A model generated the notes under the pieces. It saw nothing but the letters and a program-made list of their open reading frames with translations. It was not told the DNA's origin and made no database searches. Shown here in pieces: positions 687-36,760 of a DNA stretch of 64,000 nt. The position numbers and the translations under genes are program-made. Origin of the DNA: an uncultured bacterium (GTDB lineage: Bacteria; Margulisbacteria; WOR-1; CAZGTC01). The DNA is taken from NCBI GenBank assembly GCA_964528395.1, contig CAZGTC010000001.1, positions 30,046 to 94,045 of the forward strand. The letters are read 5' to 3'. Within the stretch, counting starts at the first letter, position 1. Every line of letters starts with the position of its first letter.

Positions 687-1805
687 ATGGATTCAGTTGG
701 AATTGTAGAAACTAAATATTTTAATCTGCCGGGCAGGCTGGTTCTAGAAAGCGGCGAAGTTTTAGACCAGGTTGCTTTGGCGTACGAGACTTACGGCAAG
801 TTAAACGCGGATAAGAGCAATGCGATTTTAATTTTCCACGCTCTCTCGGGCGATGCGCATGCAGCAGGCAAGCATTCCGAAAACGATAAAAAAACCGGGT
901 GGTGGGATAATACCGTGGGCCCGGGCAAAGCCTTTGATACGAATAAATATTTTGTTATTTGTGCGAATACGATTGGAGGCTGCAGCGGTTCAACCGGGCC
1001 ATCATCAATCAATCCAAAAACTAACCAGGCTTATGCTTTGAATTTTCCAGCTTTTACCTTAAAAGATATTGTTAACAGCCAAATTCCATTGCTTGACCAC
1101 TTCGGTATTAAGAAAATTTTGGTTGCAACCGGCGGATCCATGGGCGGGATGCTGGCACTGCAATTTGCCATCAGCTATCCAGAGCAAGTAAAAAATATTA
1201 TTGCCATTGCAGCAACGGCCCGGCTGTCGGCCCAGAATATTGCTTTTAATGAAGTAGGCCGGCGCTCGATTATCCATGATTCCAATTGGAAGGATGGAAA
1301 TTATTACCAAGGGAAAGCTCCGGTTGACGGGCTATCCATTGCGCGCATGATCGGGCATATAACTTATTTGAGCGATGAGTCCATGCGCCGCAAGTTTGGC
1401 CGCAAGGTTAAGAATGAAAAACAAATAGAGGCAAATTTTGATGTAAAATTTGAAGTAGAAAGTTATTTGCGCCATCAAGGGATTTCTTTTACCGAGCGCT
1501 TTGATGCCAATAGCTACCTTTATATTACCAAAGCCTTGGATTATTTTGACTTGGAGCGGGATTATGGATCTTTAAAAAAAGCTTTTGAAAAAGTTCAAGC
1601 CCGCTTTTTGCTCATTTCTTTTACTTCGGATTGGCTGTTTCCAGCTTATCAGTCCTTGGAAGTGGTCAAGGCTTTGAAAGACAACCGAAAAAATGTTTCT
1701 TATTGTTCGATTGAGTGCGACTATGGGCATGACGCTTTTTTAGTAGAGGTTGAACAGCAAACCAAAACTATAAAAAGTTTTTTAGCAGCAGAGGAGCAAG
1801 GCTAA
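687..1805 (+). CDS. metX: homoserine O-acetyltransferase
   Basis: 372 aa; alpha/beta-hydrolase MetX pattern (FHALSGDAHAAG, GGSMGGM); followed by metW. Confidence 0.9.
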   Translation: MDSVGIVETKYFNLPGRLVLESGEVLDQVALAYETYGKLNADKSNAILIFHALSGDAHAAGKHSENDKKTGWWDNTVGPGKAFDTNKYFVICANTIGGCSGSTGPSSINPKTNQAYALNFPAFTLKDIVNSQIPLLDHFGIKKILVATGGSMGGMLALQFAISYPEQVKNIIAIAATARLSAQNIAFNEVGRRSIIHDSNWKDGNYYQGKAPVDGLSIARMIGHITYLSDESMRRKFGRKVKNEKQIEANFDVKFEVESYLRHQGISFTERFDANSYLYITKALDYFDLERDYGSLKKAFEKVQARFLLISFTSDWLFPAYQSLEVVKALKDNRKNVSYCSIECDYGHDAFLVEVEQQTKTIKSFLAAEEQG

Positions 1806-2404
1806 TGGCAGATAAAAATTTAAGGCCGGATAAAAAAATTATCGCAAGCCTGATTCCTGCAGGATCTCGGGTTTTGGATCTTGGTTGCGGGGACGGCACG
1901 CTTTTAAAAACTTTGATCGCTGAAAAAAAAGCCTCGGGCATGGGCATAGAAAAAGATCCCGAAGCTTTAAATATCTGCCTATCTAAGGGCTTATCGGTTT
2001 TGCAGGTTGATTTGAATGAAGGCTTGAGCAAATTTGAGGATGGTTTTTTTGATTTTGTAATTTTGAATATGACCCTCCAAGTTATTGATCGTCCGGATAG
2101 ATTGGTGAAAGAAATGGTGCGGGTGGGTAAAAAGGCTATTGTGGGGTTTCCTAATTTTGGGCTTTGGATTTTGAGATTTGGATTTTTATTAAGCGGCCGC
2201 ATGCCAAAATCCCGGACCCTGCCTTATGAATGGTACGATACGCCGAATATCCGGTTAATGACCATCAAGGATTTTCGCGGCCTTTGTAAAGAAGTTAATG
2301 TTAAGATTGAAAAAGAGATTTTTATTGATGACGATGGCAAGCTCATTGCCCCATTTTGGGTTAACTTAAGGGCCGCAGAAGGGGTTTTTCTGCTAGGCCG
2401 GTAG
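1805..2404 (+). CDS. metW: methionine biosynthesis protein MetW
   Basis: 199 aa; methyltransferase-like LDLGCGDGTLL motif; start overlaps metX stop. Confidence 0.85.
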   Translation: MADKNLRPDKKIIASLIPAGSRVLDLGCGDGTLLKTLIAEKKASGMGIEKDPEALNICLSKGLSVLQVDLNEGLSKFEDGFFDFVILNMTLQVIDRPDRLVKEMVRVGKKAIVGFPNFGLWILRFGFLLSGRMPKSRTLPYEWYDTPNIRLMTIKDFRGLCKEVNVKIEKEIFIDDDGKLIAPFWVNLRAAEGVFLLGR

Positions 2405-2458
2405 AGTTATTGTTCTAGTAGCTAATAACATTCTTTTGATTTACATTAAAAAGCGATA

Positions 2459-2863
2459 ATGATAAAATTAGCTGAAATGGATCAACAATTTACCGCAACT
2501 TTACAGTCTATATTTAAGGAAAAAAAATGGGTTAAACTGGCTTTTCTTTTTGGTTCCCAATCAAAAGGGAAAAACAGGTCGGAATCGGATTTTGATATTG
2601 CTATTTGGCCAGAAGAGACCGCCAAAGACAAAGATATCAATAATTTATGGTTGGAATTAGAAGAAACGTTAAAAAAATCCGTTGATCTGGTAAACTTATC
2701 TTCAGCTGCGCCTCTGGTTGCCTGGGAAGCCTTTAAAGGGACTCCTATAGATATAAAAGATCAGCGTTTTTATATTAACAAAATGCTTGAGGTTTCTTCT
2801 GAGGCAGAGGATTTTAGTCGGTTTGTTATTGATGTTTGGAAAGCTAGAGAGGCTAAAAAATGA
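2459..2863 (+). CDS. nucleotidyltransferase-domain protein (MNT-type antitoxin)
   Basis: 134 aa; minimal NTase motif GSQSKGKNRSESDFDIAIW; ATGA overlap with the downstream HEPN gene. Confidence 0.7.
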   Translation: MIKLAEMDQQFTATLQSIFKEKKWVKLAFLFGSQSKGKNRSESDFDIAIWPEETAKDKDINNLWLELEETLKKSVDLVNLSSAAPLVAWEAFKGTPIDIKDQRFYINKMLEVSSEAEDFSRFVIDVWKAREAKK

Positions 2864-3291
2864 TTTTTAGTGAAGCAGAAAAAGGAAGCATTTTTACCAG
2901 AATTAGTTTTCTTGAATCAGAATTAAAGGATTTGAGCGAACAAAAAAATATGGATTGGAAAACTTATTTAGAAAATAAGCTGCTTCGAAAAAATGTTGAA
3001 AGAACCATTGAAAATATTGTTAATGCGCTTATTGATATCAGTAAAATTGTTTTGTCGGATAAAGCAGCAGGAGAAATTCCGCAAACTTATGGGGCTGTCA
3101 TATTAAAGCTTTCAGAGCTTAAGATAATTGAGTTTGAGCTTGCGCAACAATTAGCAGAATATGTAAAATTAAGAAATTTTTTGTCGCATCAATATTTAGA
3201 TCTTCGTTGGGATAAGATTAAGGGGTTTTTAAAGGATGCTCCGGAGTCTTTTTCTCTATTTATCCAGCAAATCAAAAAAAATATTCCATAA
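2860..3291 (+). CDS. HepT-like HEPN-domain protein (DUF86-type toxin)
   Basis: 143 aa; Rx4HxY motif (RNFLSHQY) near the C-terminus; coupled to the upstream NTase. Confidence 0.7.
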   Translation: MIFSEAEKGSIFTRISFLESELKDLSEQKNMDWKTYLENKLLRKNVERTIENIVNALIDISKIVLSDKAAGEIPQTYGAVILKLSELKIIEFELAQQLAEYVKLRNFLSHQYLDLRWDKIKGFLKDAPESFSLFIQQIKKNIP

Positions 3292-3332
3292 TTCCTTCTA
3301 TAGATAATATTTTTATTGGATGGATAAGACTT

Positions 3333-4406
3333 ATGTGGCCTAAATTAATATCGCTTCTTAATAAAATATTTAAGCAATTGCAGCAGGTTGAGCCATTGCC
3401 AAATGAATATGATGTTGTATGGGAAGGGCCGTATTTTATTCCCCAAAAAAAGAAATGGTCCCCTTCGCAATTTTTGTATTATAACGGAATTCTTTATTGT
3501 TCTCTTTTTATTGATTGGGGTACTTATCGTATGGATTGGAAGATAAAAGATAAAAAAATAAATTTTGAAACAGGATCTGGCAGCGGAGGAGATTATTATA
3601 ACAATGAATATCTCTGGGAAAGAGCTTTGACACAGATTTATCAAAGATTAAAAAGCGCTTTGAAGAATCCAGAAAGATATAATCGACACGTAAAACAATA
3701 TTTGCCATTTGCTTGTCAAGAGGGAAAAATTGAGCGCCGTTATACTTGGGATAGAAAAACAAAAAGTATTATTCCTTTTTCAAAAATTCAACACTTAGAA
3801 GATTTGCTAGCTGAAGCAGCTAAGTTGGAATATTTATCTCAAATGACACTTAGAAAATATTTAGAAACTGTTGCTATTACAAAAAATGCAGTGTTTAAAG
3901 GCTTAAAATCTTTATCTCTTGTTGAAAAATACAAGAAGCGAGCAGATACTAGGCATGGAGGCTTGCTTGATCTTCCTATGGATGATGCTGAGGCTTTTAA
4001 AAATTGGTATTGCTCAGGACGTTGGGCAGGATCTCATCCTTGGGAGATTGTTTATGGCCATCCCCATGGGATTATGCTAGCGCCACATCATGATGAAAAA
4101 GGTTGGAAATATATCTTATGGGTGGATTCCCTGGGCTGGTATGATTCGGCTGCTTATATGGCCATTGCTCTTGGAGAGAAGAAAATTTTCTTTGAGTTTC
4201 GCGACTCTCAAGAAATAATATCAGCTTTAAAAGGGGCAGATTTAGTGGAGGTTGGGCCCTTTTTTAGGATGGTTTCGTATGAGGAATTAAAGAGGGAGCG
4301 GCCGGAGGTAATAAAATATATTCAATGGAAACCCCTTTCACAATTTAAACTTATTACTCCAAATCAAAAAGAGCGCTTGCAAAGTATGCTTAAAGGAGTT
4401 TTATGA
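3333..4406 (+). CDS. hypothetical protein
   Basis: 357-aa ORF with ATG start; no family recognised by eye; 4-nt overlap with the next gene. Confidence 0.5.
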   Translation: MWPKLISLLNKIFKQLQQVEPLPNEYDVVWEGPYFIPQKKKWSPSQFLYYNGILYCSLFIDWGTYRMDWKIKDKKINFETGSGSGGDYYNNEYLWERALTQIYQRLKSALKNPERYNRHVKQYLPFACQEGKIERRYTWDRKTKSIIPFSKIQHLEDLLAEAAKLEYLSQMTLRKYLETVAITKNAVFKGLKSLSLVEKYKKRADTRHGGLLDLPMDDAEAFKNWYCSGRWAGSHPWEIVYGHPHGIMLAPHHDEKGWKYILWVDSLGWYDSAAYMAIALGEKKIFFEFRDSQEIISALKGADLVEVGPFFRMVSYEELKRERPEVIKYIQWKPLSQFKLITPNQKERLQSMLKGVL

Positions 4407-4963
4407 ATATTTTAGCTATATTAGGCAGTCCTCGTCGAGGCGGAAATTGTGAAAAGCTGCTGGATCAAGCTATTAAAAGTCAAAAGTCACAAGTTAAAAG
4501 TCACAAGTTAAAAGTCACAAGTTGCAAGAAAATCATTTTAAATGAATTAAATTTTCGGCCGTGCCAAGCGTGTGAAGAGATAAATCAAGACGGCACCTGC
4601 AAGATTCAAGATGATTTCAAGATCATTGAAAAAGCGGTTTTTGAGGCTGACATTATAATTTTGGCTTCACCTATTTATTTTGGTTCAATTTCTGCGCAAA
4701 CAAAAATGATGATTGACCGCTTCCAATGCCTTTGGCGAGCAAAAGAAAAGGGCCAAGTAGTCCCGCCTCTATATCATATAATAATGTTGCGGGATCCCGT
4801 ATGCGGGACAAGGGCCAAGGGCCAAAAAAAAGGATTCTTTATTTGTGTGCAGGCGGGAAATCGGACGGACTTTTTTGATAATGCCAGGGCAATCGTAAAA
4901 AACTTTTTTGCAACTATCGGCGCTTCTTACGAAAAAGAATTATTAGTCCCCAACCGAGAATAA
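4403..4963 (+). CDS. flavodoxin-like NAD(P)H-dependent FMN reductase / iron-sulfur flavoprotein family
   Basis: 186 aa; N-terminal ILGSPRRGGN and ILASPIYFGS flavodoxin-fold signatures; contains an in-frame tandem DNA repeat at ~4483-4530. Confidence 0.65.
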   Translation: MNILAILGSPRRGGNCEKLLDQAIKSQKSQVKSHKLKVTSCKKIILNELNFRPCQACEEINQDGTCKIQDDFKIIEKAVFEADIIILASPIYFGSISAQTKMMIDRFQCLWRAKEKGQVVPPLYHIIMLRDPVCGTRAKGQKKGFFICVQAGNRTDFFDNARAIVKNFFATIGASYEKELLVPNRE

Positions 4964-4977
4964 AGAAACTCTTAAAA

Positions 4978-5150
4978 GCCCTCATCCTAACTTCCCCAAA
5001 CTTGAAAGCTTTCTTTTCTGCAACCTTCTCCCACAGGAGAAGGAATGATTTTTAAACAAAAACTTATTTAGTCCCTCTCCTTTTAGGAGAGGGTTGTTTT
5101 GGAATTAGCTAACACATAAGAGATGTTGGGTGAGGTTTTAGCAGACCCAC
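4978..5150 (+). repeat. MITE-like composite intergenic repeat, copy A
   Basis: Modules ccctcatcct ... ccttctcc-caca-ggagaagg (5024-5043) ... ccctctcc-tttta-ggagaggg (5073-5093) ... gggtgagg (5128-5135); same module order as copies at 20800, 22827 and 61364. Confidence 0.6.
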
Positions 5151-5162
5151 CTAAAAAACTTC

Positions 5163-5190
5163 TTGACAATATTTTTTTGGCAAGTATAAT
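5163..5190 (+). promoter_or_regulatory. sigma70-type promoter upstream of hcp
   Basis: TTGACA (5163-5168), 16-nt spacer, TATAAT (5185-5190); RBS AAGGAGA precedes the ATG at 5234. Confidence 0.55.
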
Positions 5191-5233
5191 AGGTATAGCA
5201 AGTACTTATTATAAATAATTAAAGGAGAAAAAT

Positions 5234-30673: not shown

Positions 30674-31163
30674 TTTTTTCTACTTTTATTATAATTTCCG
30701 CGCCCGAAACCAAAGTCAAGATGCAAGCCATCCAGAGCAGGGTTGCTGCAAAAACTAAATTCAAAATATATGCGCTAATTGCCAAGACTTGGGAAAAAGT
30801 TTTTAATTTTCCCCAGCTGTCTGCAGCAATTACCCGGTTTTTTCTGCCTTTAGCCATGCGGTATCCGGTTATTAAGATTTCCCGGCCGATAATTAAAAGA
30901 ACCGCGGCGATTGGCGCCTGGCTTTTAAGAATTAAAGCCACAAGGCAGCTAATCACCAGCAATTTATCGGCCAAAGGGTCCAAAAATTTTCCCAAGGAGC
31001 TTTCGCATTTCAGATAGCGGGCTAAAAACCCGTCGAGGATGTCCGAAAGCGCAATGGCCAAAAAAATGGCCAAAGATATGCCAGGATCAAATTTAAATAA
31101 AGAGACGATTAAGAGGGGGATAAAAACAATTCTTAGAATCGTTATGAGATTGGGCAGGTTCAA
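30666..31163 (-). CDS. pgsA: CDP-diacylglycerol--glycerol-3-phosphate 3-phosphatidyltransferase
   Basis: 165 aa; CDP-alcohol phosphatidyltransferase motif DILDGFLAR...DPLADK. Confidence 0.85.
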   Translation of the reverse strand: MNLPNLITILRIVFIPLLIVSLFKFDPGISLAIFLAIALSDILDGFLARYLKCESSLGKFLDPLADKLLVISCLVALILKSQAPIAAVLLIIGREILITGYRMAKGRKNRVIAADSWGKLKTFSQVLAISAYILNLVFAATLLWMACILTLVSGAEIIIKVEKNG

Positions 31164-32473
31164 GTAACCGGTCGGGCGAGAAGGTCATAAGGCAAGGCAG
31201 CTAGAACCTTGGCTTTTATGATTTCTCCTGGGTTTATTTTTTTGCCAGTTATTATAACCGAACCATCGATTTCTGGAGCATCCATATATGACCGGCCCAC
31301 GCTGCCTTTAGGAGTGACTTTATCTATTAAAACTTCGATTATTTTCCCGATCATTTTCTTGTTTTTCTCTTCTGAAACCGATTTTTGTAAACTCATTAAG
31401 GTTCTTAATCTTTTTCTCTTTAATGGAGCTGGAACCTGTCCCCTCATCTTATTTGCCAGCGTGCCAGCTTCTCGAGAATATTCAAAAACACCCAATCTTT
31501 CAAACTTCGTCTCTTTAACAAAATTAAAAAGTTCTTCAAAATCTTTTTGCGTTTCCCCTGGGAACCCGACAATTAAAGAAGTCCGAAGAACTATGCCTGG
31601 TATTTCCCTCCTAATTTTTTGAATGAGCCGGATGAGCTTATTTTTGGGCGTTTTACGGCCCATTTTCGATAAAATGTTATCACATATATGCTGGATTGGC
31701 AAGTCAAGATACTTAACGATTTTCTTCTCTTTTGCCATGATTTTTATCAATTCCGGGGTAATATGTTTGGGGTGGGTGTACATGATGCGGATCCATTTTA
31801 TGGCTGGGATTTGGCAAGTTTTTCGCAGTAATTCAACAAATTTTGGATGCTGGGTCGTGTCTTGGGCAACAAAAATGATTTCTTTTACCCCTTGTTTAGC
31901 TAATTGTTTTACTTCAGCGATGACATCGACTAATGGCCGGCTATGATAATTCCCGCGGATTGAGGGAATTAAACAATAAGAACAGCGGTTATTGCACCCA
32001 TCCGCGATTTTGACATAGGCAGTGTGGGGTGGGGTAAGTTTTAAACGCGGAATATTATGAGAAAATAGTATGGCTCCGGACTTAGCTTGGGATTTAGTAA
32101 TTGGGATTTTATTTGGATTTTGGATTTTGACATTGGGATTTTTTAGGAGGTCTAATATCTGTTCTAATTGATTACACCCTAGCCAAACATCAATTTCTTT
32201 TAGAGGAGGTTTTTTTTCACGCTTGGGCAGGCAGCCGATAACTGCCAAAATTTTACAACAGCCGGTTTTTTTGTATTGGCTGTATTTTTTTATGGTTTGA
32301 ATGGATTCTGCAACCGAAGATTTTAAAAATGCGCAAGTATTGATGAGAATAATTTCTGCGAGCTTAGGATTTGTGGTTAAACTAAAACCATTGGTCAATA
32401 ATATTCCCAAAACTGCTTCAGAATCAGTTAGGTTTTTTGGGCAACCCAGGCTTAAAAGATAGATTAAGTTCAC
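31160..32473 (-). CDS. rimO: ribosomal protein S12 methylthiotransferase
   Basis: 437 aa; SLGCPKNLTDSE, radical-SAM CNNRCSYC, C-terminal TRAM; GTG start overlapping doc stop (GTGA); in-frame repeat-derived segment at ~32095-32160. Confidence 0.8.
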   Translation of the reverse strand: MNLIYLLSLGCPKNLTDSEAVLGILLTNGFSLTTNPKLAEIILINTCAFLKSSVAESIQTIKKYSQYKKTGCCKILAVIGCLPKREKKPPLKEIDVWLGCNQLEQILDLLKNPNVKIQNPNKIPITKSQAKSGAILFSHNIPRLKLTPPHTAYVKIADGCNNRCSYCLIPSIRGNYHSRPLVDVIAEVKQLAKQGVKEIIFVAQDTTQHPKFVELLRKTCQIPAIKWIRIMYTHPKHITPELIKIMAKEKKIVKYLDLPIQHICDNILSKMGRKTPKNKLIRLIQKIRREIPGIVLRTSLIVGFPGETQKDFEELFNFVKETKFERLGVFEYSREAGTLANKMRGQVPAPLKRKRLRTLMSLQKSVSEEKNKKMIGKIIEVLIDKVTPKGSVGRSYMDAPEIDGSVIITGKKINPGEIIKAKVLAALPYDLLARPVT

Positions 32474-32862
32474 GCAAGTATAATTCTTTCAATTATCCAT
32501 TGTTTTATTTTTTGGAAGGCTAGTTTGTTTTGGGCGATATTAATTACAAAATCTACAATTTCTCTGTCTTTAAATTCCCAAATATACCAGTTTTCTACTA
32601 AAAATAATTTTGTCAATATTGCTGCGGTTCTTTTATTACCATCGACGAAAGGATGTAGCCTAATAATACCTTCTAATAGAGCAGCTGCTTTATCAAATAA
32701 ATCCGGAAAGAATTCTATCCCATTGGATAGGCCTGTAAATGGTTTATTGAGGGCAGCATCTAGAGATTCTACGCTTATTAATCCTTTTAATCCTCCAAAT
32801 TCTTCGATGATTTTATCGTGTAAATCAATTACTTTTTCTAGCTTCAGAAATTCCTTTTTCAT
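32470..32862 (-). CDS. doc: Doc-family (Fic/Doc) toxin
   Basis: 130 aa; HPFVDGNKRTA matches the Doc motif HxFx(D/N)GNKR. Confidence 0.75.
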   Translation of the reverse strand: MKKEFLKLEKVIDLHDKIIEEFGGLKGLISVESLDAALNKPFTGLSNGIEFFPDLFDKAAALLEGIIRLHPFVDGNKRTAAILTKLFLVENWYIWEFKDREIVDFVINIAQNKLAFQKIKQWIIERIILA

Positions 32863-33011
32863 TTATTAGCAAGTTCTTTCCAAGCTCCAGCGTGTTTTTT
32901 TATGATAGTTTTATACTCTTTTGAGTTTTTTTTGAAGACTTTTTCTGTTGCTATGATAAGCCTTGATAATTGTTTTTTCCCTTCTTTAGTTAAATTTTCT
33001 TTTTTAGTCAT
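32859..33011 (-). CDS. small ORF, putative Doc-partner antitoxin
   Basis: 50 aa (MTKKENLTKEGKKQLSRLIIATEKVFKK...); ATGA overlap with doc start; RBS-like GAGGTG 5 nt upstream; not in ORF track. Confidence 0.35.
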   Translation of the reverse strand: MTKKENLTKEGKKQLSRLIIATEKVFKKNSKEYKTIIKKHAGAWKELANK

Positions 33012-33032
33012 TTAAACACCTCTTTTATTATT

Positions 33033-33185
33033 TTAATCTTTGGAGGGCCATTTATCTGGGTCAGGGCCGTATTTTTTTACGTTGTCTTGGATTTTCTGCT
33101 TAAAAAGAGCAACATTATTTTGCAGTTTGGCAATCGTGGCTTCGAAAGTTTCAATTTGTTTCATGAGATCATCAAGTTTTGACAT
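33033..33185 (-). CDS. small predicted coiled-coil protein
   Basis: 50 aa (MSKLDDLMKQIETFEATIAKLQNN...); strong RBS AAGGAG 5 nt upstream; not in ORF track. Confidence 0.35.
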   Translation of the reverse strand: MSKLDDLMKQIETFEATIAKLQNNVALFKQKIQDNVKKYGPDPDKWPSKD

Positions 33186-33233: not shown

Positions 33234-33893
33234 TTAAGTTTTTTGGTGCTCAACCAGGTGCATAGCAAGATCGGCAAAAGTTTTTAACCCCATAAAAATT
33301 AGGATTGCCAAGCTTTTATGCAAAAGTCCGGCCGCCCCTCCGAAGATAATCGTTAAATGCATGGGAATAATGCGAAAATATGGAAAAAACATCATTTTTC
33401 CCAGATTTTGTTTTGTTTCCCTTTCTTTGGGCCAATGGCTGATTAAAGATATGAAGTGATTTATAAAAAACAAGCCCCAAATGCTAAAAATGCTTAAAAA
33501 ATTGATCGATGAGCTTGATCCTGCGGCTGAAAAAGATATTAAGAACATACCATAAACTAAGTGAAAGATGCCGTAATGTATCAGAAAGAAAAAAGCCGCA
33601 GTATTTTTGGCCGCGGAGCTAACATCAATTATTTTGCCGTTCATGGTCATGCCGCTGGAGTCAAAATTTTTTAGGGTTAGTATTTTTATGAAACTTGCCA
33701 GCCCGATAATTACGCTTTGTCCCCAATAAGCCAGCATTAGGTCATTGACATTCCAGTGCTGGAAAATCGCAGCAGCCATAGTTATCAGGTTTGAAAGAAT
33801 AAGAAAAATAAGGGAAGGTTCGGTAAAGAGGTTTTTGGATATTTTCACCTGGTCAAAGCCTATTTTCCCCAATCCCATACTCATTTGCGGCAT
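33234..33893 (-). CDS. hypothetical integral membrane protein
   Basis: 219 aa; several hydrophobic helices; no family recognised. Confidence 0.45.
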   Translation of the reverse strand: MPQMSMGLGKIGFDQVKISKNLFTEPSLIFLILSNLITMAAAIFQHWNVNDLMLAYWGQSVIIGLASFIKILTLKNFDSSGMTMNGKIIDVSSAAKNTAAFFFLIHYGIFHLVYGMFLISFSAAGSSSSINFLSIFSIWGLFFINHFISLISHWPKERETKQNLGKMMFFPYFRIIPMHLTIIFGGAAGLLHKSLAILIFMGLKTFADLAMHLVEHQKT

Positions 33894-33942: not shown

Positions 33943-34695
33943 ATGCAGCATAGGCATACTAATTGGAATAAAGTGGCAAAATGGTACGATGGCTTAGTGG
34001 GAGAAAAAGGTTCGAACTTTCACCAGTCAATAATTTTCCCGCGGGTTTTGGATATTCTGAAAAATAAAAAAGCCAAAAAAGTCCTGGATATTGCCTGTGG
34101 CCAAGGGGCTTTTTGCCGCCAATTATTTAAGGAGGGGTTTTCTGCAACGGGCGTAGATGCTGCGGAAAACCTCATTCGCTTAGCTCGGCAAAGAACTCCT
34201 AAAGCAGACTATTTTGTGGCAGCTGCGGATAAAATGATAAATTTAAAATCCCAATCTTTTGATGCTGCGGTTTGCATCTTGGCGATCCAAAATATGGATC
34301 CGATTGAGCCGGTTTTTCAAGAGATAAAGAGAGTTTTAAAACCCGGAGGATCTTTTCTTCTGGTCATGAATCACCCCTGCTTCCGCATTCCCCGGCAGAG
34401 CGGGTGGGGGATTGACGAAAAAAGGAAGCTGCAGTACCGCCGCATCGACAGTTACCTTTCTCCCCAGAAAATTCCCATAAGGATGCATCCCGGGGCGGAT
34501 CCAAAAACCATGACGATCAGCTTTCACCGGCCGCTAGAAAATTATTTTAAGGCTTTGGCTGGGGCGGGGTTTTGCGTGGAGAATTTGGAAGAATGGAGTT
34601 CGCACCGCCAGAGTTTGGCTGGCAAAACCAAAAAAATGGAAGATCGCGCTCGAGATGAAATCCCGCTGTTTTTAATGATTAGTGCAAGACTATAA
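33943..34695 (+). CDS. class I SAM-dependent methyltransferase
   Basis: Motif I VLDIACGQGAF; start set at the first ATG (the track start at 33925 is GTG). Confidence 0.75.
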   Translation: MQHRHTNWNKVAKWYDGLVGEKGSNFHQSIIFPRVLDILKNKKAKKVLDIACGQGAFCRQLFKEGFSATGVDAAENLIRLARQRTPKADYFVAAADKMINLKSQSFDAAVCILAIQNMDPIEPVFQEIKRVLKPGGSFLLVMNHPCFRIPRQSGWGIDEKRKLQYRRIDSYLSPQKIPIRMHPGADPKTMTISFHRPLENYFKALAGAGFCVENLEEWSSHRQSLAGKTKKMEDRARDEIPLFLMISARL

Positions 34696-34781
34696 TGAAG
34701 TAATAAGCAATAAGAAATAAGTAATAAGAAAAAGATTATTTTACATCGATTTTTGGGCTGACGAAGAGAAGAATAAATATA

Positions 34782-36068
34782 TTGGAAGATCAAAAACAAA
34801 ACCATATTTTTTTTGTTATTGATGAGCTGTTGTTTGAAAATAATGTAAATAATGGGCCAATAGATTTATTAATTTATTTAACTAATATACTAAACAAGAT
34901 AAATATTAAATCTGTTAGTAATAAAATATTGGAGATAGGCAGCATCAATTATGTAATTAAAGATGAAGAGATATTTTTTTATAATATTAAAGGAATTAAA
35001 AGCTCTCTTCCTTCTTATCGTATTGAAGAACCGGTCTGGGGAAAAATTGATAAAATACCTGAAAAAGAATTTGTATTACAATATAAAATTGCTAAGAATT
35101 TATCAGCGGATTATTATGTTTCCGCTGATAAACATTTTAAATCGCTTCTTAAAGAACAAAAAAGAGGCCAACATAGGAATACACAGATAATCCCGCCTTT
35201 GAAAGCGCTAAGATTAGTGCGGGCTTTGCTTCATGCTAACGATGTTAGGTTTGGTGCAGCTCAATTTGCTTCTGTTAAGGAGTCTGTTATGAGCAGGGCG
35301 CCCTTCCATTTTTCCAAAAATCTCAACCTTATTTTTGATAAGAATAGATCAACTTATAAAAAATTACCGGTAGAAATTGGATGGGGCATTAGAAATATTT
35401 TATCGTTTCTTATTGAGACAAGGGATAAGATTGAAATCTTATTTTATGAGAAACAGAATGAATATAATGCTATAGTTGATAGCGTTTATTATTTGAACTA
35501 TTTTTTTATTTTAATGTGTTCGCTTTTTGATAATCTAGCTTGGTTTCTTGTTAAATATTATGATATCAAATATGATGATCCCAAAAGAGTAAAGTTAAAT
35601 GAATATAGGATTAAAAATAGCGTTCTTTGTAAATTTTTTTCAGAAACTAATGAGCATAACGATCTCCATGAATTTATTCAAGAAAAGCACAATTTTATTG
35701 AAATATTTTTCCCTTTGAGAAATTTAATCGCTCATCGACCTAGAATTCCTTCTCTGCTTACTAGTGTTGATAAGAGCAGGTATATTACCTATGATATAGG
35801 CTTGGAAAATGGCTTATTTGACTACTTAAAATCAAAAGACGGAAAAAAATATAATGTAAAATATTGGTATGATAAAGATGAAGACGAGAATAAAATATCT
35901 ATATCTCCTTTGAAATTTATATATGCTGTATTTGATGACTTGAAGATTTTTTTAGATTTACTATTCCAAAACATTTATAAATACAAGAGCGAGGTAGACT
36001 CCCCATTAATATTTAAAGCAAAGTCGGATCCTGTTTGCGATAGTTTGGCAAAATTAGAATCAGTATAA
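34782..36068 (+). CDS. hypothetical protein, possible Abi-like HEPN abortive-infection protein
   Basis: 428 aa; markedly AT-rich; FPLRNLIAHRP contains an RNxxAH (Rx4H) HEPN-type motif; next to a tRNA and flanked by direct repeats. Confidence 0.4.
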   Translation: MEDQKQNHIFFVIDELLFENNVNNGPIDLLIYLTNILNKINIKSVSNKILEIGSINYVIKDEEIFFYNIKGIKSSLPSYRIEEPVWGKIDKIPEKEFVLQYKIAKNLSADYYVSADKHFKSLLKEQKRGQHRNTQIIPPLKALRLVRALLHANDVRFGAAQFASVKESVMSRAPFHFSKNLNLIFDKNRSTYKKLPVEIGWGIRNILSFLIETRDKIEILFYEKQNEYNAIVDSVYYLNYFFILMCSLFDNLAWFLVKYYDIKYDDPKRVKLNEYRIKNSVLCKFFSETNEHNDLHEFIQEKHNFIEIFFPLRNLIAHRPRIPSLLTSVDKSRYITYDIGLENGLFDYLKSKDGKKYNVKYWYDKDEDENKISISPLKFIYAVFDDLKIFLDLLFQNIYKYKSEVDSPLIFKAKSDPVCDSLAKLESV

Positions 36069-36168
36069 ATACTAAAAAACTCCCAGATTTTTTAACTGTA
36101 TTAGAACAAAAAGACAACATGTATTAGAACATTTGTCTTATGCTAAAAAATAATGGAAGTAAAAATAA

Positions 36169-36513
36169 TTACTTCTGTGAATTTATCAAGCCGGAGAACA
36201 TTTTTGATAATTCTTCTACTATGCTATTGAATTTTTCTATTGTTTCTTCTCCAGGATTTGAATGCAATAAAATAAGATCAAAACAAGTTGCCGTTTCATT
36301 TAAAGAAGCCCTTGCTGTAATATAGAAATGCTTTTTATCGTTTTTTGTAAATCTGCCATAACCTTCAGAAAAATTTAAGATAATCGAGATGACTGCCCTT
36401 AATATTTGGTCTTTTAATGGTCGGGGAACATTGGTATTAAGGCAATTGTTTACTAAAGAATATAACTCTTTTGCCTTTTTGTAGATTTCTTTATCTTTAA
36501 AATCAGTAAACAA
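36169..36513 (-). CDS. four-helix-bundle protein (TIGR02436 / 23S rRNA IVS protein family)
   Basis: 114 aa; characteristic ILNFSEGYGRF ... ITARASLNET pattern. Confidence 0.8.
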   Translation of the reverse strand: MFTDFKDKEIYKKAKELYSLVNNCLNTNVPRPLKDQILRAVISIILNFSEGYGRFTKNDKKHFYITARASLNETATCFDLILLHSNPGEETIEKFNSIVEELSKMFSGLINSQK

Positions 36514-36644
36514 AGCTTTTTTCCTTCTTTTTTCTTATTTCTTGTTACTTATTTCTTAAATATTGCGAAAGACAAGGGGGACTTATTAAGAAACAAGTAA
36601 TAAGCAATAAGTAGCAAGAAAAATATTGCTTTCGCAATATTTTA

Positions 36645-36716
36645 TGGGCCTTGTAGGATTCGAACCTACAACCAATCGGTTATGAGCCGAGTGCTCTACC
36701 CTTGAGCTAAAGGCCC
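36645..36716 (-). tRNA. tRNA with CAT anticodon, elongator type; probably tRNA-Ile2 (lysidine)
   Basis: GGGCCTTTAGCTCAAGGGTAGAGCACTCGGCTCATAACCGATTGGTTGTAGGTTCGAATCCTACAAGGCCCA folds as a cloverleaf; G1:C72 paired so not initiator; tilS is 2 kb away. Confidence 0.8.
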
Positions 36717-36760
36717 GCAATCCGAGTATTATAACAAAAATTGTGTTAAAATTTCCTTTT

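Follow-up and report, generated by a model that had tools for sequence, protein, structure and literature searches.

A probable type II Doc-family toxin-antitoxin pair upstream of rimO, with an antitoxin that appears reduced to its neutralising module

The question raised by the locus

Can a protein of only 50 residues be the antitoxin of a Doc-family toxin, and does it mean anything that the toxin gene runs with its stop codon into the start of rimO, a ribosome-modification gene? This question is raised by a 64-kb stretch of contig CAZGTC010000001.1 from an uncultured bacterium of the WOR-1 group (Margulisbacteria), which is the whole DNA analysed here and is called the window throughout. The original prediction described in it a gene with a Doc motif that overlaps the GTG start of rimO and is itself overlapped at its ATG by a small, unannotated open reading frame (ORF) with a site resembling a ribosome-binding site; it placed the pair at the head of an operon, regarded its coupling to rimO as an unusual arrangement, and suggested that the small ORF might represent a distinct type of antitoxin.

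We consider it probable that the two genes constitute a Doc-family toxin-antitoxin pair of type II in which the antitoxin has been cut down to the neutralising module alone. By homology, the 50-residue protein would be the whole C-terminal module, of about 48 amino acids, of longer Doc partners, and from this kinship we infer that it binds Doc. The features on which this answer leans are the following.

32859-33011, minus strand: the small ORF, encoding the 50-residue Doc partner; taken from the ORF list; very basic, with 14 lysines
32470-32862, minus strand: doc, 130 amino acids, Fic fold; above the cut-offs of PF02661 and TIGR01550
32629-32655, minus strand: the catalytic motif HPFVDGNKR of Doc, residues 70-78, read from the sequence
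32859-32862, minus strand: ATGA overlap of the small ORF stop with the doc start, translational coupling
33017-33024, minus strand: the Shine-Dalgarno-like AAGAGGTG, 5 nucleotides 5' of the ATG of the small ORF, kept in the related contig L090
32470-32473, minus strand: GTGA overlap of the TGA stop of doc with the GTG start of rimO

Both overlaps and the ribosome-binding-like site had therefore been described correctly, whereas the small ORF cannot be called unannotated, because the exact protein is already held, without a name, in the NCBI, ENA and Logan protein sets.

The partner as the C-terminal module of longer Doc partners

The small ORF has no match in Pfam or NCBIfam even at E ≤ 1, and a word-index search with it alone recovers only itself. 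Its identity was traced via the neighbours of the closest Doc homologues, which are 52–57% identical to the Doc of the window. In contigs of the Ignavibacteria/Bacteroidota type, an unannotated protein of 153–176 amino acids is encoded before doc, by a gene that abuts or overlaps the doc start (with overlaps of 1 or 4 nucleotides in four of six loci), and the C-terminus of this protein, ...NSxEYKEI(I/V)EKNREAWKKLADL, matches the small ORF in BLASTP at E 3e-8 to 5e-8 with 38–40% identity (partners of 168–172 amino acids). The multiple alignment places the window protein, from about residue 3 to its end, over the whole C-terminal module of the long partners. A hidden Markov model (HMM) was also made of the module alone, using the C-termini of 24 long partners and leaving out the window ORF. 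When the 1101 ORFs of the window were searched with it, the small ORF came out at E 9.6e-9 and the next best ORF at E 0.14.

Partners of 118–124 amino acids (L009 from a WOR-3 metagenome-assembled genome, L098, L100 and P0201) carry the same module behind another N-terminal region, which is helical, so that across the long and the helical partners it is fused to two unrelated N-terminal domains, neither of which has a family match; the longer, alpha/beta N-domain gave no convincing fold match either. It also occurs alone, as a 53-residue partner with an ATGA overlap to doc in L091 and in further stand-alone forms of 47–67 amino acids (P0152, P0161, P0170, P0174, P0187 and P0200). AlphaFold2 models the 50-residue protein of the window as two helices, residues 9–25 and 31–49, with a predicted local distance difference test (pLDDT) value of 70.

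The resemblance extends to the canonical Doc partners. At nearly every Doc locus among the 80 genome loci listed, an upstream ORF on the same strand abuts doc and ends in ...(F/Y)xxxhxxLxxLA(K/Q/E), with N-termini that belong, in the representative canonical partners, to MazE/AbrB (PF04014), RHH (PF01402) or Phd/YefM (PF02604). As a control, other Doc partners do match PF02604, PF04014 or PF01402, unlike the small ORF. In a profile-profile test of the window-type module (18 sequences) against the tails of 32 canonical Doc partners, hhalign reached a probability of 93.9% and E 1.6e-7, in an end-to-end alignment of the final 19 columns of the two profiles. Searches of the PDB sequences with the partner profiles returned no Phd and no credible relative.

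Judged from its sequence, the small ORF is thus a predicted stand-alone Doc-neutralising (Phd-C-like) module without a DNA-binding domain, for which there is no room because the protein has only 50 residues and these align wholly to the C-terminal module. The suggestion of a distinct antitoxin type stands insofar as no Phd/YefM, AbrB or RHH model matches the small ORF, but not as regards its neutralising principle, since its alignment with the module at the C-terminus of the longer partners makes it a known kind of neutralising element minus the usual N-terminal domain, and no new antitoxin principle.

The small ORF as a real gene

The small ORF is very short, lysine-rich and of low complexity, it lies in an AT-rich stretch and it matches no family, all of which would fit a chance ORF or a decaying remnant without function. 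However, the related contig L090, in which the order small ORF, doc, rimO, pgsA, cinA and recA is the same, leaves this explanation next to no credibility. Compared with its L090 counterpart, the small ORF of the window shows 13 nucleotide differences, of which 10 are synonymous and 3 non-synonymous, with a ratio of non-synonymous to synonymous substitution rates (dN/dS) of 0.054, and all three amino-acid changes fall within residues 2–6; L090 also preserves the ATGA overlap and the Shine-Dalgarno sequence. Added to this is the significant homology to partners encoded upstream of homologous Docs, among which the identical 4-nucleotide ATGA overlap between partner and doc recurs (L090, L091, L094 and L096). 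The comparison of sequences hence indicates that the small ORF is a real, conserved gene under purifying selection, the chance reading being effectively refuted by the selection and profile searches, and the view of the small ORF as a partner gene coupled to Doc is borne out by the overlap and by its conservation in L090.

The partner family to which this gene belongs is rare. An exhaustive HMMER search with a partner profile that included the window ORF, against 1.84 billion representative proteins at E ≤ 1e-3, gave only 61 hits (clusters), among which the window protein scores 56.5 bits and E 4e-10, as a member of the query profile itself. Long forms account for about 15 of the hits, short forms of 47–78 amino acids for about 11 and proteins of about 106 amino acids for about 30; the short forms consist of ten stand-alone modules of 47–67 amino acids, including the window protein, and of P0168 (78 amino acids), which has gained a hydrophobic segment at its N-terminus. 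Every name that the sources give to members is "hypothetical protein", and their records list no Pfam domain. No member was found in 2.9 million viral contigs.

In the proteins of about 106 amino acids (P0169 and P0171–P0199, about 30 clusters), the match is confined to the N-terminal domain of the long partners, MK(I/L)KV...F(T/S)(D/E)EE...; these stand-alone N-domain proteins belong to no Pfam family and gave no clear match to a known fold.

The Doc toxin

The doc gene encodes a small, single-domain protein of 130 amino acids, near the size of about 125 amino acids expected of a Doc, and it passes both curated cut-offs, with 59.7 bits against Pfam Fic PF02661 (cut-off 24) and 65.8 bits against NCBIfam TIGR01550 DOC_P1 (cut-off 38.65). 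Its nearest relatives of solved structure are the Doc of E. faecalis (9VZC_A, E 6e-10) and that of P1 (3K33_A, E 1.3e-8), covering residues 8–123. The homologue search yielded 794 Doc homologues; an exact-sequence look-up of the window Doc found no record. In an alignment of the window Doc with 29 relatives, H70, F72, D74, G75, N76, K77 and R78 are invariant, and HPFVDGNKR fits the motif HxFx(D/N)(A/G)NKR by which Doc has been defined (PMC13034048), a lysine replacing the second glycine of the Fic motif. The claim of a bona fide Doc with an intact catalytic motif consequently survives proper alignment, and the protein can be taken, from its sequence features, as a genuine Doc-family toxin. From what is known of its family, it would be a Fic-fold kinase that phosphorylates EF-Tu and halts translation.

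How the pair may work

In the mechanism that we propose, the last ~19 residues of the partner (EYKTIIKKHAGAWKELANK) would be the tail by which Doc antitoxins bind the toxin groove as a helix, and the helix in this groove would block or sequester the kinase. In both solved Phd–Doc complexes, only the C-terminal bent helix of the antitoxin contacts Doc (PMC13034048), and a portable two-helix element named "Phd-C" neutralises Doc when fused to carriers that do not bind DNA, single-domain antitoxins also being known (PMC10440598). The pair would probably not repress its own promoter, because there is no DNA-binding domain, and it would be expressed by read-through transcription of the surrounding string of same-strand genes. 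The antitoxin-to-toxin ratio would then be set by translation, with a strong Shine-Dalgarno sequence for the small ORF, none good for doc, and reinitiation at the ATGA. The translation of rimO would probably be coupled in part to that of doc, given that rimO starts inside or at the end of doc.

Several observations weigh against a pair of this kind and should be kept in mind. The HMM of the canonical tails ranks the small ORF first among the 1101 window ORFs but with only 8.5 bits and E 0.18, and the tail profile does not detect P1 Phd; this miss agrees with the report that the Phd proteins of E. faecalis and P1 have no detectable sequence similarity, and yet both bind Doc via a C-terminal bent helix (PMC13034048). 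The confidence of the AlphaFold2 model of the 50-residue protein is modest, and in the model of a long partner (P0129) the first half of the module, residues 123–146, is a beta hairpin packed on the N-domain and not a helix. Phd-C on its own did not neutralise, and did so only once a tag stabilised it, in a SUMO fusion (PMC10440598); by analogy the free 50-residue module might need a helper. Finally, a promoter and terminator consensus scan performed no better than on shuffled sequence and is uninformative on the operon boundaries.

As for the two models, the corresponding residues 9–25 of the 50-residue protein are modelled as a helix, both models being of modest confidence, and the difference between hairpin and helix may reflect a segment that folds on binding.

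ORF A and the possibility of a split partner gene

Upstream of the small ORF, two further genes lie on the same strand.

33033-33185, minus strand: ORF A, a helical protein of 50 amino acids, in the same frame as the small ORF
33234-33893, minus strand: a DUF6498 gene (membrane protein), directly 5' of ORF A

The gaps are 21 nucleotides between the small ORF and ORF A and 48 nucleotides between ORF A and the DUF6498 gene. With these two genes upstream on the same strand, the pair does not demonstrably head its transcription unit, and the placement at an operon head is not upheld. The DUF6498 gene accompanies ORF A and the small ORF also on contig L089, and it is absent from all other rimO loci and all other Doc loci examined.

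ORF A brings in a tentative explanation that refines the reduced antitoxin without excluding it, namely that a nonsense mutation split a helical Doc partner of about 120 amino acids, like those of WOR-3 and related contigs, into two genes, that both halves were kept, and that ORF A now serves as a separate accessory, stabilising or sensing subunit of a three-part system. We regard this gene fission as a possibility somewhat short of even. ORF A (MSKLDDLMKQIETFEATIAKLQ...PDPDKWPSKD) is separated from the small ORF in the window by a TAA, six codons and a second TAA before the ATG, and in L090 by a single TAA and seven sense codons. An HMM of the helical partners (four sequences) matches the small ORF with model positions 90–123 at E 2.6e-7 and, as the next match, ORF A with model positions 5–41 at E 0.29, and the two proteins concatenated are collinear with the helical partners with one gap of 11 residues. 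With the N-terminal part of the helical HMM alone, ORF A ranks first among the 1101 ORFs, a score reached by 3 of 3000 shuffles. Purifying selection on ORF A also agrees with a retained half, with 8 synonymous and no non-synonymous differences to L090 over the 22 ORF A codons visible there.

On the other hand, the match of ORF A is weak, at 7.5–7.8 bits, and comes from a four-sequence profile of helical sequence rich in lysine and glutamate, and a shared frame is expected by chance in one case out of three. No homologue of ORF A was found in any other locus fetched, including those of the short-form partners in L091–L093, nor does ORF A match any family, DNA-binding family or fold (Pfam, NCBIfam), or defence system. 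In PADLOC the small ORFs, including ORF A, have no match, and Doc matches only generic Fic-domain candidate models; an Rfam scan of the window found only two tRNAs and no RNA element near the pair. The evidence for the split of an ancestral helical partner into two retained genes is accordingly coherent but weak. Stop read-through joining ORF A and the small ORF was considered too; the two in-frame TAA codons, together with the separate Shine-Dalgarno sequence and ATG of the small ORF, make separate translation likelier.

The rimO junction and the history of the locus

The gene downstream of doc is the one that made the arrangement look unusual.

31160-32473, minus strand: rimO, with its start overlapped by doc; TIGR01125, 436.8 bits; context, outside the toxin-antitoxin system

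The doc–rimO overlap is no annotation artefact, because the GTG is the first start codon of the rimO ORF and TIGR01125 aligns from residue 4. Read from the sequence, there is no good Shine-Dalgarno ahead of rimO. Within rimO, at 32100–32150 of the window, lies a run of GGATTTT-like direct repeats. Read on the minus strand, they encode ...KNPNVKIQNPNKIP..., apparently an insertion into RimO that is specific to the lineage.

Does this junction express a specific functional coupling, in which a translation toxin is deliberately co-translated with the S12-modification enzyme? We find this very unlikely. In its favour, the start of rimO is held within doc both by the GTGA overlap of the window and, in L090, by a GTG 25 nucleotides inside doc, so that the junction persists within the lineage; rimO lacks a good Shine-Dalgarno sequence; and a divergent tract across the junction, described below, speaks for a third lineage with probably the same arrangement. 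But among 80 metagenomic rimO loci with RimO proteins 35–53% identical (none above 53%), many of which carry rimO-pgsA-cinA, there is no Doc, small ORF, ORF A or DUF6498 gene nearby in any. Furthermore, the closest relatives of this Doc sit between glyA and tatC, others being coupled to a gene for a PCC-domain protein, and a literature search found no paper naming Doc together with rimO. The functional pairing with ribosome modification is therefore not sustained, and the conservation of the pair upstream of rimO holds for the related contig L090 and fails for the more distant loci. The G+C content of the stretch with doc, the small ORF and ORF A is 0.31–0.33, below the 0.38–0.50 of the rimO–recA flanks, and together with the absence from the 80 rimO loci this makes the pair a likely lineage-specific insertion before rimO. 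The position next to rimO looks incidental and lineage-specific, with no functional partnership with ribosome modification.

The comparison with L090 is a mosaic: a block of ~950 bp (~31880–32840), from the doc start to about 600 nucleotides into rimO, has 57–85% nucleotide identity, as against 88–100% in the rest of the 5 kb compared. This block explains why the Docs of the window and L090 share only 66% identity, where flanking proteins are 88–97% identical. The synonymous divergence (dS) of Doc is ~2.2 versus 0.34–0.47 for the neighbouring genes; even so, neither of the two Docs has a closer relative than the other. Such a pattern would fit a tract of recombination or else a chimera of the metagenome assembly, and, as a recombination tract, it looks like an import from a less closely related lineage in which doc was likewise joined to rimO.

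In the relatives, the place of the pair is of another kind. The order glyA, partner, doc, tatC and polyprenyl synthase is kept in six contigs of the Ignavibacteria/Bacteroidota type (L001, L002, L003, L006, L094 and L096, at ~1100–5200 in each), with partners of 153–173 amino acids and with doc abutting or overlapping tatC at gaps of -8 to +9 nucleotides. While TatC identity falls as low as 51%, Doc (47–88%) and the partner module (42–81%) diverge in step with the flanks, so that the glyA-partner-doc-tatC order appears unusually stable for a toxin-antitoxin pair, and this Doc subfamily, going by its neighbourhoods, tends to stay settled among strings of core genes, whichever gene lies downstream.

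Such stability invites the view that this Doc subfamily, with its partner free of a DNA-binding domain, is a domesticated module, one that regulates translation from a fixed place in the chromosome and is expressed together with core genes, and no longer an addiction or defence cassette. We judge this unlikely. The gene order kept across deep divergence, the parallel divergence of Doc and partner with their flanks, the tight junction to tatC, the doc–rimO overlap kept in two diverged forms within the window lineage and the absence of the partner family from viral contigs all agree with it. In contrast, the pair is missing from the 80 more distant rimO loci, the lower G+C of doc, the small ORF and ORF A is what would be expected for acquired DNA, the Doc motif is as complete as it is in toxic Docs, and stable chromosomal toxin-antitoxin loci are not unheard of.

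A still more elaborate picture joins this to the gene fission: a rare Doc subfamily, fixed and vertically inherited in core-gene operons (glyA-partner-doc-tatC and ORF A-small ORF-doc-rimO), would act as a built-in brake on EF-Tu, coupled by translation, rather than as a selfish cassette for addiction or defence. The window partner would have been split, giving a system of three parts in which the kinase is joined by a free peptide that neutralises it and by a helical protein in an accessory role. We hold this to be rather improbable.

Significance of the locus and a neighbouring island

If the partner is what we take it to be, an antitoxin reduced to its toxin-binding module, the locus offers a natural example of such a reduction and a test of the idea that a type II antitoxin is a portable linear neutralising element combined with exchangeable carrier or DNA-binding domains. 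It also exposes a small family of Doc partners without a Pfam model, whose N-domains are not recognisable DNA binders, and it raises the question of how a Doc kinase is restrained without autoregulation while coupled to housekeeping genes. Should the idea of a stable, operon-embedded regulator be true, this would be a useful case of toxin-antitoxin domestication; should the pair be a plain toxin-antitoxin insertion, the value would lie in annotation, as small upstream ORFs ending in ...AWK(E/K)LA(N/D/Q/E)(K/R/L) become callable as Doc antitoxins. The interest of the locus is thus drawn from the rare, unannotated partner family, from the stable embedding in housekeeping operons and from the possible gene fission.

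Elsewhere in the window, positions 34600–36720 form an island of low G+C (0.26–0.31) beside a tRNA gene (36645–36716, minus strand). It contains an ORF of 428 amino acids with a sub-threshold HEPN (Cthe_2314-like) match and a 114-residue 23S-rRNA-intervening-sequence (four-helix-bundle) protein, and it may be a small integrated element.

Comparison with known systems

The inhibitory motif of class I Fic antitoxins is (S/T)xxxE(G/N). Inspection of the 50-residue sequence finds no S or T with E-G or E-N four residues on, and inhibition of the FicA/VbhA type was rejected. The FicA (YhfG)/FicT and VbhA/VbhT pairs resemble the window pair in that the gene upstream of the Fic-fold toxin encodes a helical partner of ~55–60 amino acids that lacks a DNA-binding domain (for YhfG, see PMC2701414); they differ in the toxin, which in the window is of the Doc type, with the NKR motif and predicted kinase activity, and not an AMP-transferase.

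Antitoxins without a DNA-binding domain are also known from omega-epsilon-zeta and paaR-paaA-parE (PMC5086665), and the window shares with them a small extra gene, here ORF A, directly upstream on the same strand. In contrast to those systems, ORF A shows no DNA-binding signal in Pfam or NCBIfam and may be an antitoxin fragment and not a repressor, and the toxin family is a different one.

The Phd–Doc pairs of P1 and E. faecalis (3K33, 3DD7 and 9VZC) have the same toxin family with the HxFx(D/N)(A/G)NKR motif and the same order, with the antitoxin gene upstream of and overlapping the toxin gene, and neutralisation through a C-terminal helix would be expected here as well. Where the window partner departs from them is in having no Phd/YefM N-terminal fold for DNA binding and dimerisation (no Pfam match at E ≤ 1), and because of this, autoregulation by conditional cooperativity is not expected. 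Of the Phd/YefM family (PF02604), the window partner shares the C-terminal Doc-binding tail, as seen in the hhalign result, P1 Phd itself being undetected.

A likeness of architecture links the window protein to the Phd-C element of PanA-Doc (Ernits et al. 2023, PMC10440598), the part in which the neutralisation of Doc resides. Both are short elements of two helices, predicted ones in the case of the window protein, and both can change carriers that need not bind DNA, given that the window-type module occurs on two N-domains. Unlike Phd-C, the window element has no Panacea domain and is encoded as a free-standing gene product.

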